Of a stretch of 46,880 nucleotides of DNA, positions 1 to 14,095 are shown in pieces; within the stretch, counting starts at the first letter, position 1; every line of letters begins with the position of its first letter. The stretch covers positions 1 through 46,880 of the forward strand of contig JAZOOE010000011.1 in assembly GCA_045654865.1 (NCBI GenBank). Reading direction: 5' to 3'. A model generated the notes under the pieces. It was not told the DNA's origin. It worked only from the letters and a program-made list of their open reading frames with translations, and did not search any database. The position numbers and the translations under genes are program-made. The DNA is from Acutalibacteraceae bacterium (GTDB taxonomy: Bacteria; Bacillota; Clostridia; Oscillospirales; Acutalibacteraceae).

Positions 1-381
1 TTGCCGCTTACCACGAAAGCGTTGTATATTGCTCAGTTTGCGGCGAGGAAATCTCAAGAACACCCGTAAACGGCACAACGCTTCCTCACACAGAGGAAAA
101 GATACCCGCCGTTGCTCCCGATTGCGATACGGACGGTCTGACAGAGGGCGTTAAGTGCTCCGCTTGCGGAGACATTCTTACCGCTCCCGAAAAAGATCCC
201 GCAAAGGGACACACACCCGCTGAGGCAGTTATTGAAAACGAGGTAGCTGCAACCTGCAAGATTGCGGCATACCACGAAAGCGTTGTATATTGCTCAGTCT
301 GCGGAGAGGAAATTTCAAGAACACCCGTAAACGGCACAACACTTCCTCACACAGAGGAGGAAATTCCTGCTGTCGCTCCCT
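1..381 (+). repeat. In-frame 261-bp (87-codon) direct repeat inside the Cys-rich protein gene
   Basis: nt 10-120 and 271-381 align at an offset of 261 with only a few mismatches (accacgaaagcgttgtatattgctcagt[t/c]tgcgg...cttcctcacacagagga). Confidence 0.9.
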
Positions 382-7971: not shown

Positions 7972-8001
7972 ATGAAAGAAAAAAACAAGGAGATAAATGC
8001 T

Positions 8002-11000
8002 ATGAAGAAGCTGTTATTTCTGGCAAGTGTAATTCTTGCTCTGGCTTTTGTTTTTTCTTTTGCCGCGGGTGATGAAAGCTCGGGGCTGTCCCCTGCCGTT
8101 ACGGTATATGCCGCCACTGCCGAGGGAACCTACGGCAATAATATATTCTGGACTATTGACGGTGATACACTTACTATCAGCGGTGAAGGTGCCATGGTTG
8201 ATTATGACCGTGCAAACGATATTCCGTGGTATAAATACAGAGCTGACATTGTTACTGTTAACATTGGGGAAGGTATAACGTCACTCGGATACTATGCTTT
8301 CGGTGAACTTTCTTCTTTAAAGGAAGTCAATATACCGGACAGTGTTACCTCTCTGGGTAAAAGTTTATTTATTGCTTGTGTTTCTCTTGAAAGTATAGAG
8401 CTTCCGTCAGGTATAGAGGAGATTCCCCAGAGTTGCTTTATGGGGTGTTCTTCATTGAAGGAGATAGTTTTTCCTGAAAATCTCAGAGTAATAGGGGTAT
8501 CAGCATTTCATTCCTGTGCTGCTTTGACTGAAATAATTTTTCCCGAAACGCTTGAAGAAATATCTGCGGGTGCATTCGCACAATGTGGTTCACTTGTCAG
8601 AGTTCATATATTTTCTGAAATTGTTTTCTCAGGTAATCCGTTCAGAGACTGTGACAATCTTATAGAATTTAAGGTTAATGAAGAAAACGAACGCTATAAG
8701 GCAATAGATGGCATACTCTACAATAAGGACGGAACTCATATTTATATTTATCCTGTGGGTAGACCTGATAAAACCTTTATTGTTTCCGAAAATATAAAAT
8801 CTATCGGTGTAGGAGTTTTTGAAGGATCAAATTATCTTGAAAGTGTCTATATTTACGCTGACATAATATCTGTTCCATACTATGCTTTTTCAAAGATGGA
8901 ATCTCTTAAATACATTTATCTGCCGCAGAGTATAAGATATATTTATACTTGTGCATTTTCAGAGTGTCCGTCTCTTCGGAGCATCAATATACCTTACGGA
9001 GTTGAAACATTAGATAATCAGGTTTTTTACAAATCAAAGTCTCTTACGAAAATTGTTTTGCCCGCAAGCGTAGTCTCTGTTGATGAAAGTTCATTTGCAT
9101 ATTGTGATGCATTGGAGCAGATTACTGTAATGAATCCAGATTGTGTTATAAAATCTGCATATAACGGTGTATCTGAAAATACGGTAATCAAGGGATATAA
9201 GGGTTCAACAGCGGAGACCTATGCATTGGAAAAGGGCTGTGAATTTGTGGAAATTACGGCATCGGACAGCTTTGATAATAATCTTTTATGGGTGCTTTAT
9301 GAGGACGGTTCTCTTGAAATTTCAGGTGACGGCGAAATGACGGAGTTTGCAAGTGCTTCTGCTGTTCCCTGGTATAAAAATGCAGGAGAAATCAGACAGC
9401 TTCATATAGAAGAGGGTGTAAAAAGTATATCGGCTTTTGCTTTCTATCAATGCAGTGCGCTGAAATCAGTAACGCTTTCCTCTACAATAAAAGAAATCGG
9501 TAATTTTGCTTTCTTTGATTGCATTACACTTGATGCTGTCAATATCGGTGCGTGTGCAGGGCTTGAGATAATCGGGAACAATGCCTTTGGCGGCTGCTCG
9601 TCGCTTTCATCTGTTGATATTCCCGCCGGTGTAAGAGAAATGGGAGAAAACGTATTTCTTCGCTGTACGTCTCTAATGGCTATAAACGTTCATGAAGAAA
9701 ACAACAGCTATTTCTCAGAATCGGGAGTGCTCTTCGGCTCTTACGGGGAAGACGTAGTCCTTATTTGCTATCCTCCTATGAAGGCCGATAAGATTTATAT
9801 TGTTGCAGATAACGTAACGGAAATCGCAGGCAGCGCTTTTGCATACTGCGACCTTATTGAAGAGGTTGAATTTTCACACAGCAGTCAGCTCAGAAGAATC
9901 GGTCAGGCGGCATTCTATGAATGCTCTGCCCTTAAATCCTTTACTGTTCCTCCTATGGTTGAGGAAATAGACGGCAATATTTTTGTTATGTGCTTCAGCC
10001 TTGAGGAAATATACACGGATTTATTCAATGAGCATTTCTTTGCCCGTGACGGCGTTCTTATGGATTGGGATGAAACCACGATCCTCATTTATCCTGCAGG
10101 CTCAAAAAGAACTGAATATATAATCCCCGAAACAATTACCACTATAGCAAAAGAGGCTTTCTGTCATTGTCCCTCTCTTGAAAAGGTGCTGTACCCCCAA
10201 GGAAGTGAGCTTTCCGTAATCAACGAATCTGCTTTTTACAGCTGTGAAAAGCTTTCCTATATAGCTCTTCCCGATTCACTTGAGGAAATCGGCGATTATG
10301 CATTTATGGATTGCACGTCTCTTGGTTTTGTTCATATTCCCGAAAACGTATCCCATATAGGCAGCTTTGCCTTTGGCGGCTGTGCTTCTCTTGAGAAGCT
10401 TGTTTTCTTCACCTTGGATTGTGAAGAATATATGATTATTGATTCTCAGATGTCAGTCACATTCTATGTTTATGAAGGCTCTGAAATTGAAGCTGCGCTC
10501 AGCGGTAAGGGTGAGATAAAATACCTTGTTCAGGTTCCCGAGGATGCGGTTTCCTATGCTGACGGTGTGCTCACGGTAAATCATCTTACGGACATTCCCG
10601 AAGCCGATGATGCATTTTGCTATCCCTGGACAAGATACGTTGGTGAAGCGACAGTTTTTGTTCTCAATCCCGAGCTTTCTGTTGCGGGCGGACTTTTCGA
10701 GGGCTTTTCTGAGGTGAAGACAATTATTGTTAATGCCTCTGCGGATTCCGCTCAGGGCACCATATTCGAAAAGAACGCTTTTGTCGGCTTCTCAAGCCTT
10801 GATATGGTCGTTACCTTTGATGATCTTTCCGTTCGTGACGGCGCTTTTGACGGCAGAGAAGAATTTATAAAATTCTTTGCAGAGGAAAGCATTGTTGTCG
10901 GCGGTGCAGAAAACGTAACCGTATTTTCATTCTCAGAGGGAACAGTCAGCTTTAAAGGAGATGGACTTTCTCTTACTGATTATCAGTTCCTTGATCTTGT

Positions 11001-11376
11001 GAGTGCTGTATGCTACGGCTATGGCGAAGAAACAGTGTTCTATATCGAGTTTTCTGCACTTGAAACAGTAGATTTCGCCTTTGATGCATCCTTTGACAGC
11101 GAAGCGGATGAAATAAGAGTCAGCTATGAGGAAATAAGAATAGTACCTCTTATCTCCTATGACGGCGAAAACTATGAGCCAATATCCTTTAATGATTTCT
11201 GTGTAAATGCGGCATACCGTGAATGGGTGGTTCTGATGCTCTCTCTCGTTGAGGCGGATGAGGAAGAGCCACAGCCTGACAATGACAGTATTCAGGTTAT
11301 CTTTGAAGAGGCAATAGGCTATATTCTTCACGCTATTATCACATTCTTCAATAAGATTCTGAATCTTTTTAAATAA
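8002..11376 (+). CDS. Very large secreted BspA-type leucine-rich-repeat (LRR_5-like) surface protein
   Basis: It has the signal peptide MKKLLFLASVILALAFVFSFAAG. The RBS AAGGAGAtaaatgctATG favours a start at 8002 over the track start at 7972. It contains dozens of ~23-aa repeats of the form I-x-IP-x-SV-x-x-IG-x-x-AF-x-x-C-x-x-L. The C-terminal end is acidic and finishes with the helix GYILHAIITFFNKILNLFK*. Confidence 0.85.
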   Translation: MKKLLFLASVILALAFVFSFAAGDESSGLSPAVTVYAATAEGTYGNNIFWTIDGDTLTISGEGAMVDYDRANDIPWYKYRADIVTVNIGEGITSLGYYAFGELSSLKEVNIPDSVTSLGKSLFIACVSLESIELPSGIEEIPQSCFMGCSSLKEIVFPENLRVIGVSAFHSCAALTEIIFPETLEEISAGAFAQCGSLVRVHIFSEIVFSGNPFRDCDNLIEFKVNEENERYKAIDGILYNKDGTHIYIYPVGRPDKTFIVSENIKSIGVGVFEGSNYLESVYIYADIISVPYYAFSKMESLKYIYLPQSIRYIYTCAFSECPSLRSINIPYGVETLDNQVFYKSKSLTKIVLPASVVSVDESSFAYCDALEQITVMNPDCVIKSAYNGVSENTVIKGYKGSTAETYALEKGCEFVEITASDSFDNNLLWVLYEDGSLEISGDGEMTEFASASAVPWYKNAGEIRQLHIEEGVKSISAFAFYQCSALKSVTLSSTIKEIGNFAFFDCITLDAVNIGACAGLEIIGNNAFGGCSSLSSVDIPAGVREMGENVFLRCTSLMAINVHEENNSYFSESGVLFGSYGEDVVLICYPPMKADKIYIVADNVTEIAGSAFAYCDLIEEVEFSHSSQLRRIGQAAFYECSALKSFTVPPMVEEIDGNIFVMCFSLEEIYTDLFNEHFFARDGVLMDWDETTILIYPAGSKRTEYIIPETITTIAKEAFCHCPSLEKVLYPQGSELSVINESAFYSCEKLSYIALPDSLEEIGDYAFMDCTSLGFVHIPENVSHIGSFAFGGCASLEKLVFFTLDCEEYMIIDSQMSVTFYVYEGSEIEAALSGKGEIKYLVQVPEDAVSYADGVLTVNHLTDIPEADDAFCYPWTRYVGEATVFVLNPELSVAGGLFEGFSEVKTIIVNASADSAQGTIFEKNAFVGFSSLDMVVTFDDLSVRDGAFDGREEFIKFFAEESIVVGGAENVTVFSFSEGTVSFKGDGLSLTDYQFLDLVSAVCYGYGEETVFYIEFSALETVDFAFDASFDSEADEIRVSYEEIRIVPLISYDGENYEPISFNDFCVNAAYREWVVLMLSLVEADEEEPQPDNDSIQVIFEEAIGYILHAIITFFNKILNLFK

Positions 11377-11729: not shown

Positions 11730-14069
11730 ATGAAAAAAATGAAAAAAACAGCTTTGACACTCCTTGCAGCTGCTTTTGTTTTCTCTCTCTCATTTGCCCT
11801 TGCGGCTGACTACAGCGCACTTCTTCCCGAAGCCGCCGCAGCAGAGATTCTTGAAAGCGTAACCGTGGGTGATAATATTACCGCAACGCTTTATTCCGAT
11901 TACACTCTTGTTATTGACGGTGAGGGTGAAATGACCGTTCCGTTAGATTCTGCTGATGTAAGATATATTCACAAGATTGTTATCTCTTCCGGAATAACTG
12001 CAATTTGTGAATCTGCATTCAGCGATTTCAGTTATGTAGAGGAGGTCGTTTTTGAGGAAAACAGCCGTCTTGAAAAAATCGGTATTCATGCATTCAGTAG
12101 CTGTTATAGTCTTAATGAGATAAAAATTCCTGCATCGGTTACTCTTATTGACGAGTATGCATTTGCATATTGCTATAATCTCAATACAATAGTTTTTGAA
12201 GAAAACAGCCGTCTCAGAAATATAGGGGATCAGGCTTTTGTCAATATCGGAATAACAGAGCTTTCAATTCCCTCTTCTGTTGAAGAAATCTCCGGTGGTG
12301 CATTTTCAAGCAACAAAAATCTGAAAAGCGTAACCTTTGGTGCTGATTCAAAACTGAAGAGCTTAGGTGAAACAACCGAAAATCTGCCCTACTTATATTA
12401 TAATGGTGTTTTTGCCTATTGTGAGAAGCTTGAGGAAATAAAAATACCTGCAAGTGTAACAGTTATAGGCAATAAAGCATTTTATTACTGTACTAAGCTT
12501 AATAAAGTAGAAATTGAAGCAGGCAGCAAGCTTACGCGAATTGATGAATATGCATTTGCTAACTGCTATGCTATTGCTGAAATCAATTTCCCCGAAGGAC
12601 TTGTGGAAATAGGCAAAGCAGCATTCAGTAATAACTGCTTAACAAAAATAGCAATCCCTGCAAGCGTTGAAGAAATCGGGGAGAATGCATTTGAAGATTG
12701 TAACTATGTATCAGAGATCAGCTTTGCTTCCGGAAGTAAATTAAAGAGCATCGGTGATAGTGCATTCTCCGGTTGTAATGTATTAGAGAAGCTTCAGCTT
12801 CCCACAGGTCTTAAGACGATAGGTGAAAATGCTTTTGATGGATGCTATAAGCTTGACAGTGTAATTCTTCCTGATGGAATTGAGTTTGTCGGTGAGGCGG
12901 CATTTGTAGGTACAGCGGCTTCCGAAATCAGAATTCCTGCCTCTGTAACCTATTTCGGTGCCGGAAGCTACGGAAAGAATCTGGAGAGATACATTGTAGA
13001 AGACGGTAATGAGGTTTATGCTTCTGATTCAAACGGCGCTCTGTTTTCCAAGGATATGACAACGTTATATGTTTATCCCACAGCTTCACCTGCTAAGGAG
13101 TATACAATTCCTCAGGGTGTGCAGACTATTGCAGATTCAGCGTTTCTTTTTAACCTTAATCTTGAAAGTATTAAAATGCCTGATACTGTGAAAGAAATAG
13201 GGGATTTATCCTTAGCAATAATGTTAAGTCTTAAAGAAATACGTTTGTCATCAAAGCTTGAATCTGTAGGAGAAGAGGCTTTCTTAGGATGCTTTTATCT
13301 TGAAGAGCTTGTAATTCCTGCAAGCGTAAGATATATCGGCGCAGATGCTTTCAGTCTTTTGACTTCTGTAAAGAGAATAGAGATACACTCAAGAACTGTT
13401 GATTGTGATGACACGTTCCTCGGATTTTCTGCATTCCTTACAGATGATGTCGCAGAAAATCAGTTCAGAATAGATGTTATGGCAGATTATTATGAGTTCA
13501 TAATGTTCTATGATATATATGCTCCCGAAAATGAGAACAGACTTTATGAAATAAGTGAAAAGCTGGACGGCTTTGTCAATGAAGAAAATATCAGAACCGA
13601 TATTTATACGGTATATTGCTATGAGGGAGCGGTTGTAGAAGCGTATCTCAAGGAAAACAATGTAAAATATGCTTATCTTTGTGCTCATACTGAAATGGAG
13701 GTTATTCCTGCTGTTACTCCCGGTTGTTCCACGGACGGACTTACAGCCGGCATAAAGTGTGCTCTTTGCGGTGAAATTCTCACAGCACAGCAGATCGATC
13801 CTATGATAGGCCATGCTCCCGAAGTTCAGGGCGAAAAGGCTCCCGAAATCGGTGTTCCCGGATACACGGGTGATATGGTCTGCACCGTTTGCGGCGAGAC
13901 TGTTGAATACGGCGAGGAGATACCCGCTCTTGAGGACAATACTCAGCCCGAATGTGACCATATCTGCCACAAGGATGGTGTGCTGGGTATTCTCTGGAAG
14001 ATAATCGGCTTCTTTGCAAAGCTCTTCAAGACAAATCCCGTTTGTGAATGCGGAGCTGCTCACTATTAA
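11730..14069 (+). CDS. Secreted BspA-type LRR surface protein with C-terminal Cys-rich modules and a CxCGxAHY tail
   Basis: It has the signal peptide MKKTALTLLAAAFVFSLSFALA; the ATG at 11739 is perhaps the true start given the AAAGGA spacing. LRR_5-like repeats run throughout. The C-terminus carries two CxxCG modules and then ECDHICHKDGVLGILWKIIGFFAKLFKTNPVCECGAAHY*. Confidence 0.85.
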   Translation: MKKMKKTALTLLAAAFVFSLSFALAADYSALLPEAAAAEILESVTVGDNITATLYSDYTLVIDGEGEMTVPLDSADVRYIHKIVISSGITAICESAFSDFSYVEEVVFEENSRLEKIGIHAFSSCYSLNEIKIPASVTLIDEYAFAYCYNLNTIVFEENSRLRNIGDQAFVNIGITELSIPSSVEEISGGAFSSNKNLKSVTFGADSKLKSLGETTENLPYLYYNGVFAYCEKLEEIKIPASVTVIGNKAFYYCTKLNKVEIEAGSKLTRIDEYAFANCYAIAEINFPEGLVEIGKAAFSNNCLTKIAIPASVEEIGENAFEDCNYVSEISFASGSKLKSIGDSAFSGCNVLEKLQLPTGLKTIGENAFDGCYKLDSVILPDGIEFVGEAAFVGTAASEIRIPASVTYFGAGSYGKNLERYIVEDGNEVYASDSNGALFSKDMTTLYVYPTASPAKEYTIPQGVQTIADSAFLFNLNLESIKMPDTVKEIGDLSLAIMLSLKEIRLSSKLESVGEEAFLGCFYLEELVIPASVRYIGADAFSLLTSVKRIEIHSRTVDCDDTFLGFSAFLTDDVAENQFRIDVMADYYEFIMFYDIYAPENENRLYEISEKLDGFVNEENIRTDIYTVYCYEGAVVEAYLKENNVKYAYLCAHTEMEVIPAVTPGCSTDGLTAGIKCALCGEILTAQQIDPMIGHAPEVQGEKAPEIGVPGYTGDMVCTVCGETVEYGEEIPALEDNTQPECDHICHKDGVLGILWKIIGFFAKLFKTNPVCECGAAHY

Positions 14070-14095
14070 TTAAATAAACAGCTTCTGATAAAAAA

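Follow-up and report, generated by a model that had tools for sequence, protein, structure and literature searches.

A cysteine- and histidine-clasped tail at the extreme C terminus of secreted proteins from gut Oscillospirales: a candidate surface-retention module

A conserved tail of 38 residues, hereafter called the clasped tail, closes secreted proteins with otherwise unrelated domains in uncultured members of the order Oscillospirales. In a 46,880-nt stretch of DNA from an Acutalibacteraceae bacterium (assembly GCA_045654865.1, contig JAZOOE010000011.1; hereafter the window), it forms the ends of the leucine-rich repeat (LRR) protein P0001 and of P0003, whose gene is cut by the start of the contig. 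The tail is a discrete module that occupies a strictly terminal position on unrelated passengers, is under strong purifying selection, contains a cationic, strongly amphipathic helix, and is interchangeable with tails that consist of such a helix alone. We infer that the tail binds both membrane and metal and thereby retains the protein to which it is attached. Our preferred reading, with a probability of about 0.45, is that this C-terminal module is portable and retains Sec-exported proteins of a few genera of uncultured gut Oscillospirales at the cell surface by combining an interfacial amphipathic helix with metal-binding clasps.

The tail in the window and its genome

The clasped tail follows the pattern CxHxCH, amphipathic helix, CxCGxxHY-stop (window positions 13953-14066 and 639-758, by translation). 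The original prediction had reported nearly identical tails on two neighboring secreted proteins, and translation of window positions 13833-14072 and 519-764 reproduces both of them exactly. The features of these two proteins, and those of the LRR protein P0002, which ends with a helix only, are as follows (all on the + strand; ORF, open reading frame; AF2, AlphaFold2).

11730-14069, +: gene of P0001, a secreted BspA-type LRR protein of 779 residues that bears a clasped tail (ORF list and translation; Pfam LRR_5, E = 4.7e-98)
11730-11804, +: putative Sec signal peptide of P0001, MKKMKKTALTLLAAAFVFSLSFALA, with AD following the presumed cleavage site (basic N-terminal end, hydrophobic core, and A-x-A site, read by eye from the sequence alone)
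13680-13952, +: stalk of P0001, consisting of Cys/His zinc-ribbon-like modules (C-x9-11-C-x2-C-G...H) and the acidic linker EEIPALEDNTQPE upstream of the tail (translation; beta strands in the AF2 model)
13953-14066, +, stop codon 14067-14069: clasped tail of P0001, 38 residues, CDHICHKDGVLGILWKIIGFFAKLFKTNPVCECGAAHY (translation; profile A1, E = 3e-27 in its own genome)
13953-13970, +: N-terminal knuckle C-x-H-x-C-H of the P0001 tail (conservation of C1, H3, C5, and H6)
13977-14033, +: cationic aromatic amphipathic helix of the P0001 tail, GVLGILWKIIGFFAKLFKT (AF2 helix; hydrophobic moment 0.59)
14043-14066, +: C-terminal knuckle C-x-C-G-x-x-H-Y of the P0001 tail, which ends on the free carboxyl group (conservation; stop codon directly after)
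3-761, +: 3' part of the gene of P0003, cut by the contig start; 252 residues seen, with Cys/His zinc-ribbon-like repeats followed by a clasped tail (ORF list and translation)
639-758, +, stop codon 759-761: clasped tail of P0003, a variant of 40 residues, CIHICHRDDNIFAKAVWSIIRFICSIFGIGKTCSCGEAHY (translation; profile E = 5e-17)
7972-11376, +: gene of P0002, a secreted LRR protein of 1134 residues with a helix-only tail (ORF list, translation, and Pfam)
11317-11373, +: helix-only amphipathic tail of P0002, GYILHAIITFFNKILNLFK (translation; hydrophobic moment 0.60, hydrophobicity 0.90)

Both P0001 and P0002 start with a typical signal peptide and contain BspA-type LRR_5 repeats (Pfam, E = 5e-98 and 9e-118, respectively); the N terminus of P0003 lies beyond the start of the contig. 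The tail of P0002 lacks the Cys/His knuckles, and there is no remnant of a cysteine motif past its stop codon in any reading frame.

The window corresponds to contig C11 of an assembly of 2.5 Mb that is 74% complete. A six-frame scan of this genome recovered the end CxCGx[AGS]H[YFW] three times, in each case as the last residues of an open frame, and a looser scan added a fourth copy on contig C66, which ends with CECGTVHI. One of the copies, located on contig C213, is cut by the contig end, and every copy closes its reading frame. The four copies match the tail profile with E values of 3e-27 to 7e-14, whereas no other place in the genome scores better than E = 0.1. This gap and the terminal position of all six-frame matches indicate that the occurrence of the tail in this genome is not due to chance.

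Family size, terminal position, and passenger proteins

When the last 50 residues of P0001 served as the query of a word-indexed search, 36 proteins were recovered, all of which share the end ...C[DS]H[ILM]CHK.GF.GF.WKI..FF.KLFK.NPVCECGAAHY; a single member (P0026) adds six residues past the terminal HY. Nearly all of them start with a signal-peptide-like sequence (one seems to be truncated at its 5' end), and their bodies comprise LRR_5, C-type lectin, DUF6273, or transglutaminase-like domains or lack any known domain. A profile of 44 positions built from 20 tails (A1) and run against 1.84 billion representative proteins matched 2,464 protein clusters (at the level of 50% identity) with E <= 1e-3, of which 1,218 remained at E <= 1e-10. 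In 168 of the 170 database proteins inspected, the stop codon follows one residue after the conserved histidine; the two exceptions bear 6 and 21 extra residues. Signal-peptide-like starts are present in 128 of these 170 proteins, and the remainder seem to be 5'-truncated gene calls from metagenomes.

A scan of one genome per species yielded 144 confirmed stretches, from which 79 loci were kept; all 77 motif matches in these loci are terminal. Among the tail-bearing ORFs that lie entirely within a contig, all start with a signal-peptide-like sequence save three short ones (170-272 residues), where none was detected. Pfam domains assigned to 69 full-length members include LRR_5 (46 of 69), Flg_new_2, Lipase_3, DUF6273, CBM26, Glug, and one dockerin, and phosphoesterases are also found among the unrelated passengers. 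There are 4 copies in the incomplete genome of the window and as many as 18 in a relative. The large number of clusters, the terminal position, and the unrelated passenger domains document that the clasped tail is not a peculiarity of a few paralogs. This bears out the expectation of the original prediction that many signal-peptide proteins with unrelated domains would end exactly with CxCGxAHY, and excludes the two outcomes that would have spoken against it, namely a confinement of the tail to the paralogs in the window and its occurrence at internal positions.

Two divergent variants end with ...CDCLCHQTNIWGRLFRVLRKLIKLFGYEGKCCPDSDI-stop, where CC replaces CxCGxxHY (locus L080, G108:C1:56700-57300), and with ...CGCMCHKEGFVGWLWKNILCPICKFLGIEQDCACGIKHWTK-stop, which is two residues longer (locus L085, G019:C4:36400-36850). 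Their existence indicates that the family is broader than the strict motif.

Conservation and selection

Among 207 unique copies of the tail, 204 are exactly 38 residues long. Since this set was selected with a regular expression, residues C1, C5, H6, C31, C33, G34, and H37 are fixed by construction; in an alignment of 69 proteins derived with a hidden Markov model, however, the same residues and H3 are invariant. In the regular-expression set, H3 is present in 97% of the copies and replaced by cysteine in the other 3%, and Y38 is present in 99%. The exchange of His3 for Cys is the rule in an entire subfamily of phosphoesterases (C[DS]CNCH). Further positions conserved in at least 94% of the copies are G9, G12, W15, K16, I17, F21, K23, L24, F25, N28, P29, and Y38. 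The variable positions are 2, 8, 19, 22, 26, 27, and 35, and those that fall inside the helix (19, 22, and 26) constitute its polar face.

The DNA sequences encoding 78 of the tails have a mean amino acid identity of 0.75, with identities of 0.81, 0.87, and 0.53 at the first, second, and third codon positions. Identical residues share the same codon with a frequency of 0.59, as compared with 0.50 expected from the pooled codon usage. With third codon positions near saturation, the similarity of the tails reflects old and strong selection at the protein level rather than the recent spread of a single DNA cassette. Codon usage in the same sequences (the window and loci L001-L079) is skewed for the terminal tyrosine (TAT in 78 of 80), the proline of the N-P pair (CCC in 63 of 77), and asparagine (AAT in 97 of 126), and mixed for the Cys, His, and Gly codons of the tail; the skew may reflect the context of the stop codon or a local nucleotide constraint.

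Interchange with helix-only tails

An aromatic amphipathic helix forms the end of 24 ORFs of at least 150 residues in the genome of the window, including P0002; another example is ...FFDKLKAFFRSIVEFFRNLFK-stop. A signal peptide is present in 19 of the 20 helix-tailed ORFs with a complete 5' end but only in 367 of 1,785 other ORFs (odds ratio 73, p = 2e-12). The helix-only proteins tested comprise secreted metallophosphoesterases, alpha/beta hydrolases, a PHP protein, and a GLUG protein. Their ends have the pattern FFxKIxxFFxxLF-stop without Cys or His, are not covered by any Pfam or NCBIfam model, and occur also on very large proteins (2,091-4,273 residues). Apart from the window (11317-11373), such ends are located on contigs C255, C140, C21, C220, C134, C49, C208, C137, C247, C119, C120, C35, C254, C257, C258, C121, C91, and C145 of the same assembly (G000). 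Among the orthologs of one helix-tailed hydrolase, down to 54% identity, the amphipathic end is mostly kept while its sequence drifts, as expected for a segment that binds lipid.

The relationship between the two kinds of tail is most evident in the family of secreted metallophosphoesterases, which was searched with the catalytic region only. Among the best 120 homologs, 53 end with the pattern of the clasped tail (plus two near-variants, recognized by eye, that end with CKCAVKHY), at least 30 have helix-only amphipathic tails, about 25 have other hydrophobic or amphipathic tails (estimated from the printed ends), and about 10 stop just past the catalytic domain. One helix-only phosphoesterase with 74% identity in the catalytic domain ends with ...FFNKIINFFKKLFGID and shares KIINFFxKLF with the helix of the clasped tail. 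In a homolog from a separate cluster of related clasped-tail loci, an uncharged segment, which the crude scale used below does not rate as a strong membrane span, is followed by KIKGKK. The tails come after an acidic, Pro/Glu-rich linker in the closer homologs shown. A relative genome even encodes GFFWRIISFFKNLFGIDRYVY-stop, which corresponds to the helix of the clasped tail without the knuckles. The swaps among orthologs, the shared KIINFFxKLF, and the knuckle-less helix together suggest that the clasped tail is a helix-only tail extended by two knuckles and occupies the site where relatives carry other retention devices. They also corroborate the link that the original prediction had drawn to the end of P0002.

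Helix properties and predicted structure

In the AF2 model of a 44-residue tail, residues 16-30 form a single helix (mean predicted local distance difference test score [pLDDT] 74) with coil on either side. When the last 140 residues of P0001 are modeled, the stalk consists of beta strands with block-mean pLDDT values of 82-94 over residues 21-100 (74 for residues 11-20), and the tail, with a helix at residues 112-127, reaches values of 59, 72, 67, and 48 over residues 101-140. Such moderate values after a confidently predicted stalk would fit a segment that adopts its fold in contact with a surface and not in isolation.

The helix of the P0001 tail has a hydrophobic moment of 0.59, a mean hydrophobicity of 0.93, and a net charge of +3; the values are similar for the tail helices overall (about 0.6, 0.9-1.0, and +3). 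Lysine and other polar residues at positions 16, 19, 23, and 26 line up on one narrow face. The cost of membrane insertion, computed as a crude sum on the biological scale, is +3.2 to +8.9 kcal/mol for the tails (+6.6 for the P0001 helix) and -2.1 kcal/mol for the LPXTG anchor of the same genome. The positive cost argues that the tail helix is not a membrane-spanning stop-transfer segment. When moment and hydrophobicity are calculated in the same way for the C-terminal anchor sequence of PBP5 of Escherichia coli, the values are close to those of the tail helix, and the tail consensus (about 1.56) exceeds the threshold of the HeliQuest rule (0.944 x moment + 0.33 x charge > 1.34). The clasped tail shares sequence traits with PBP5-type anchors, which are a functional class and not a sequence family: a signal peptide is present, the helix is predicted at the extreme C terminus with a length of about 18 residues, and its moment is about 0.6. 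In PBP5, the C-terminal helix, 18 residues long, anchors the protein to the inner membrane from its outer face (PMC2909392).

The original prediction of a C-terminal sorting or anchoring signal therefore stands in part: anchoring or retention is favored by the way helix-only tails take the same position and by the physicochemical character of the helix, but a classical, enzyme-handled sorting signal is not, because the helix does not span the membrane.

Absence from known families

No model in Pfam-A, NCBIfam 20.0, or PADLOC covers the tail (full proteins; NCBIfam and PADLOC also with the isolated tail). In the case of NCBIfam, which includes models of sorting domains, no model matched the tail at E <= 1, whether the query was a full protein or the 38-residue peptide. 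These results agree with the earlier notion that the tail matches none of the named sorting signals, and they also argue against its membership in a described domain family, since no curated family covers it. Likewise, and as already noted in the original prediction, no LPXTG, SLH, dockerin, or choline-binding model matches P0001, P0002, or P0003. An LPXTG-like pentapeptide is absent from the last 60 residues of all three proteins, and the single LPXTG-like substrate of the genome is quite unlike the tail proteins. Dockerin type I (PF00404) is not matched by P0001-P0003, and the one dockerin among the 69 tail proteins is located elsewhere in the chain.

There was no significant sequence match in the PDB, where the only match was a 12-residue EGF-like stretch (E = 3.2). 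Foldseek searches against the PDB gave no matches for the 44-residue model and nothing below E = 0.7 for the 140-residue model. Full-text searches of a literature library for tail peptides and sorting-signal terms found no mention of the tail, and the few sources that name a member refer to it as 'hypothetical' or by its catalytic domain only.

Stalk modules upstream of the tail

The stalks in the window (positions 3-638 and 13680-13913) consist of repeated extracellular Cys/His modules of the approximate form C-x9-11-C-x2-C-G-x12-16-H, which match zinc-finger and zinc-ribbon models of Pfam only below threshold and resemble an uncurated extracellular zinc-ribbon-like repeat. P0003 contains a near-exact internal duplication, AAYHESVVYCSVCGEEISRTPVNGTTLPHTEE[K/E]IPAVAP, at residues 1-38 and 88-125 (window positions 3-125 and 258-386), an arrangement produced by the recent duplication in tandem of a single stalk module.

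The tail often comes after CxxC stalk repeats, and its CxCGxxH resembles their CxxCG...H, as would be expected if it were simply the last, modified unit of the stalk, i.e., a structural cap or oligomerization helix of soluble adhesins that are released and not retained. This explanation is very improbable, because the tail is found also on passengers that lack a stalk, where it directly follows an acidic linker (e.g., in phosphoesterases), and is interchangeable with plain amphipathic tails. Moreover, a soluble cap would not be expected to expose a broad face of Phe and Trp.

Chemistry of the cysteine and histidine residues

The seven Cys and His residues of the tail are invariant in the alignment of 69 proteins, and an exchange between His and Cys, as observed at position 3, is typical of a metal ligand. 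No member of the CcsA/CcmC/CcmF family (PF01578) was found in the 12 strongly tail-positive genomes, although the same search matched 9 of 14 control genomes; DsbB and VKOR were also absent from all 12, with matches among the controls in each search. The lack of these genes renders covalent attachment of heme to CX3CH and enzyme-made disulfides unlikely. The simplest reading of the His3-to-Cys swaps and the missing genes for DsbB, VKOR, and cytochrome c maturation is that the Cys/His pairs, with their free thiols and imidazoles, would bind metal. No zinc-ribbon model of Pfam covers the tail.

Covalent chemistry, with CX3CH as a c-type heme site or the four cysteines as an EGF-like disulfide knot, could draw on the retention of C-x-x-x-C-H in every variant and on the weak match to a CQHLCHN stretch of the EGF module 1apq (E = 3.2). 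That match is not significant, however, and covers only 12 residues, and the tail has four cysteines instead of the six of the EGF pattern. Together with the missing maturation and disulfide genes, on which both possibilities were rejected, and with the strictly anaerobic gut habitat of the tail-bearing bacteria (as judged from their source), this leaves covalent chemistry close to refuted. Nothing supports the lipidated cysteine anchor that had been proposed as an alternative to a zinc-binding clasp.

Partner genes and distribution

A dedicated protease or transferase, the co-occurrence of which had been suggested at the outset, could not be detected: clustering of all ORFs in the neighborhood of the 79 tail loci (L001-L079) revealed no such conserved neighbor, and genes of TetR-type regulators are the only recurrent ones (10 of 79 loci). 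The neighbors in the window itself, namely a GHL6 glycosidase, an AgrC-like kinase with a LytTR regulator, four small acidic proteins, and nadC, do not include a candidate partner. All 24 genomes tested contain sortase regardless of whether they carry the tail, so that sortase is ruled out as the cause of the tail's distribution. The genome of the window has four sortase-domain matches (on contigs C174 and C16) and one LPXTG-like substrate among the complete ORFs of the 74%-complete assembly.

The named loci all belong to metagenome-assembled genomes labeled Acutalibacteraceae, Oscillospiraceae, Ruminococcus, Faecalibacterium, Candidatus Fimenecus, or Clostridia, and those with a source in their title are from ruminant guts or feces. 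In a sample from the family of the window, matches are present in 15 of 301 genomes (12 of them strong) and 10 of 185 genera, with top copy numbers of 18, 13, 13, and 8 per genome; one genome of the same genus has none. The tail was not found in a sample of 400 further genomes of the order. A search for orthologs of P0001 in two genomes of the same genus (E = 1e-20) gave no match and is uninformative. No relative of the tail was found in the viral contigs searched, which argues against a phage origin.

Strict C-terminal location, multiple copies per genome, a patchy taxonomic spread, and the pattern of many substrates with one signal are also what a cleaved sorting signal would show, where a dedicated membrane enzyme recognizes and removes the tail and links the protein to wall or lipid, as in the case of sortase, exosortase, or rhombosortase. 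However, the tail lacks the tripartite form of such signals. It has neither a membrane-spanning helix (+3 to +9 kcal/mol) nor a basic end (HY instead of Lys/Arg), and its most conserved residues reach to the very last one. With no match to a sorting-domain model of NCBIfam, no enzyme gene conserved beside the tail genes, and sortase equally common in genomes with and without the tail, a cleaved signal is improbable.

Surface retention or docking

If the clasped tail is a retention module, the protein would be exported via its N-terminal signal peptide, and the last 38 residues would remain at the membrane. The central helix of about 19 residues, with its broad, nearly invariant Phe/Trp/Ile face and narrow Lys face, would lie flat in the outer leaflet of the cytoplasmic membrane, by analogy with the C-terminal helix of PBP5 of E. 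coli. The knuckles C-x-H-x-C-H and C-x-C-G-x-x-H-Y, the latter with its free carboxylate end, may bind metal, probably zinc, and thereby fix the ends of the helix or link tails to each other. The acidic, Pro/Glu-rich linker and the zinc-ribbon-like stalk would keep the passenger (LRR adhesin, lectin, or hydrolase) off the membrane.

Several observations weigh against this interpretation. On its hydrophobic side, the helix of the clasped tail conserves individual residues much more strictly than helix-only tails do (F21 and F25, 100%; L24, 98%; I17, 96%; W15, 95%); since generic lipid binding needs no such conservation, this points to specific packing, a receptor, or self-assembly. The strict HY-COOH end suggests that the free carboxyl group is recognized or used as a ligand, and the patchy distribution of the tail would fit a co-inherited partner. 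Moreover, the sortases present in all genomes tested are an available alternative route of anchoring. A straight helix of 19 residues would hold the knuckles about 28 Å apart (our estimate), so that a single metal site in a monomer could form only if the FKxNPV segment turned back alongside the helix, which its length permits; otherwise, the sites would have to form between chains.

The main rival is a docking or self-assembly module, in which the aromatic face and the knuckles would bind a surface receptor or other tails via metal bridges and thus gather many cargos on one scaffold instead of the bilayer, comparable to the binding of dockerins to cohesins. The argument for it is that the identity of the residues is conserved and not just their amphipathicity: conservation is strong and old, with 38 residues in 204 of 207 copies and third codon positions near saturation, whereas helix-only tails drift. 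The exact end on HY-COOH, the many cargos per genome, and the clade-limited distribution point in the same direction, and by our reasoning, seven ligands would fit an inter-chain site with two metals and one bridging cysteine. Nevertheless, docking is unlikely on balance. There is no conserved neighbor gene in the 79 loci, no candidate receptor was identified, and no dockerin or cohesin model matches the proteins of the window. The replacement of the clasped tail in orthologs by helix-only tails of very different sequence is poorly explained by a single receptor.

A more speculative and somewhat less likely proposal is that the clasped tail marks cargo for a hitherto undescribed system of surface display in uncultured gut Oscillospirales that depends on metal. 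Here, the aromatic face and the seven Cys/His residues, together with the free carboxylate at the C terminus, would make zinc-bridged contacts with a dedicated receptor or between tails, and adhesins and hydrolases would be assembled, and perhaps released, according to the availability of metal. If true, this would constitute a principle of sorting or docking that involves neither a membrane-spanning segment nor a known enzyme and serves dozens of adhesins and hydrolases per cell. Returning to retention at the membrane, a metal-clasped form would join the short list of non-spanning membrane anchors and, if metal is bound outside the cell, would represent an extracellular zinc site of a kind unusual for a strict anaerobe.

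Comparison with known systems

To our knowledge, little is known about how uncultured gut Clostridia retain adhesins and enzymes at their surface. Annotation pipelines label tail proteins as 'hypothetical' or by their catalytic domain only, and a tag of 38 residues on at least 2,464 protein clusters would make their surface proteome searchable by a simple marker. The clasped tail is a candidate for a new family model in Pfam or NCBIfam and, as a compact tag, might serve protein display on Gram-positive cells.

With LPXTG/sortase substrates and with PEP-CTERM, GlyGly-CTERM, and PGF-CTERM signals, the clasped tail has in common that a short C-terminal tag is present on many exported proteins with a patchy taxonomy. 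It differs from them in that it lacks the combination of signature motif, spanning helix, and basic cluster, has no NCBIfam model and no partner enzyme that could be found, and is conserved to its last residue. Dockerins, like the clasped tail, are small, mostly C-terminal modules on varied secreted enzymes of Clostridia and depend on metal (a dependence that for the tail is only presumed). However, dockerins consist of calcium-binding, duplicated, EF-hand-like segments (PF00404), for which there is no match in the proteins of the window, and we know of no cohesin-like partner for the clasped tail.

In zinc ribbons and knuckles, as in the clasped tail, paired Cys/His ligands in close proximity flank a structural element, and His and Cys can be exchanged at a ligand position. 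By contrast, the clasped tail has seven conserved putative ligands (C-x-H-x-C-H and C-x-C-G-x-x-H) with a helix in between, is extracellular, and is not covered by a zinc-ribbon model of Pfam. PBP5 (DacA) shares with the tail proteins the export via Sec and an aromatic amphipathic helix of about 18 residues at the extreme C terminus that does not span the membrane; in PBP5, this helix is located at the outer face of the cytoplasmic membrane (PMC2909392), as proposed for the tail. Unlike the clasped tail, the anchor of PBP5 lacks Cys/His knuckles, is not portable across unrelated proteins, and is not strongly conserved in sequence, and there is no homology between the two.

The closest likeness is with the helix-only tails on exoproteins of gut Clostridia, which occupy the same position behind an acidic linker, have a homologous helix core (KIINFFxKLF, GFFWRIISFFKNLFG), and swap with the clasped tail in orthologs. 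They differ in the lack of knuckles, a variable length, and a drifting sequence and, judging from the range of homologs that bear them, appear to be more widespread than the clasped tail.

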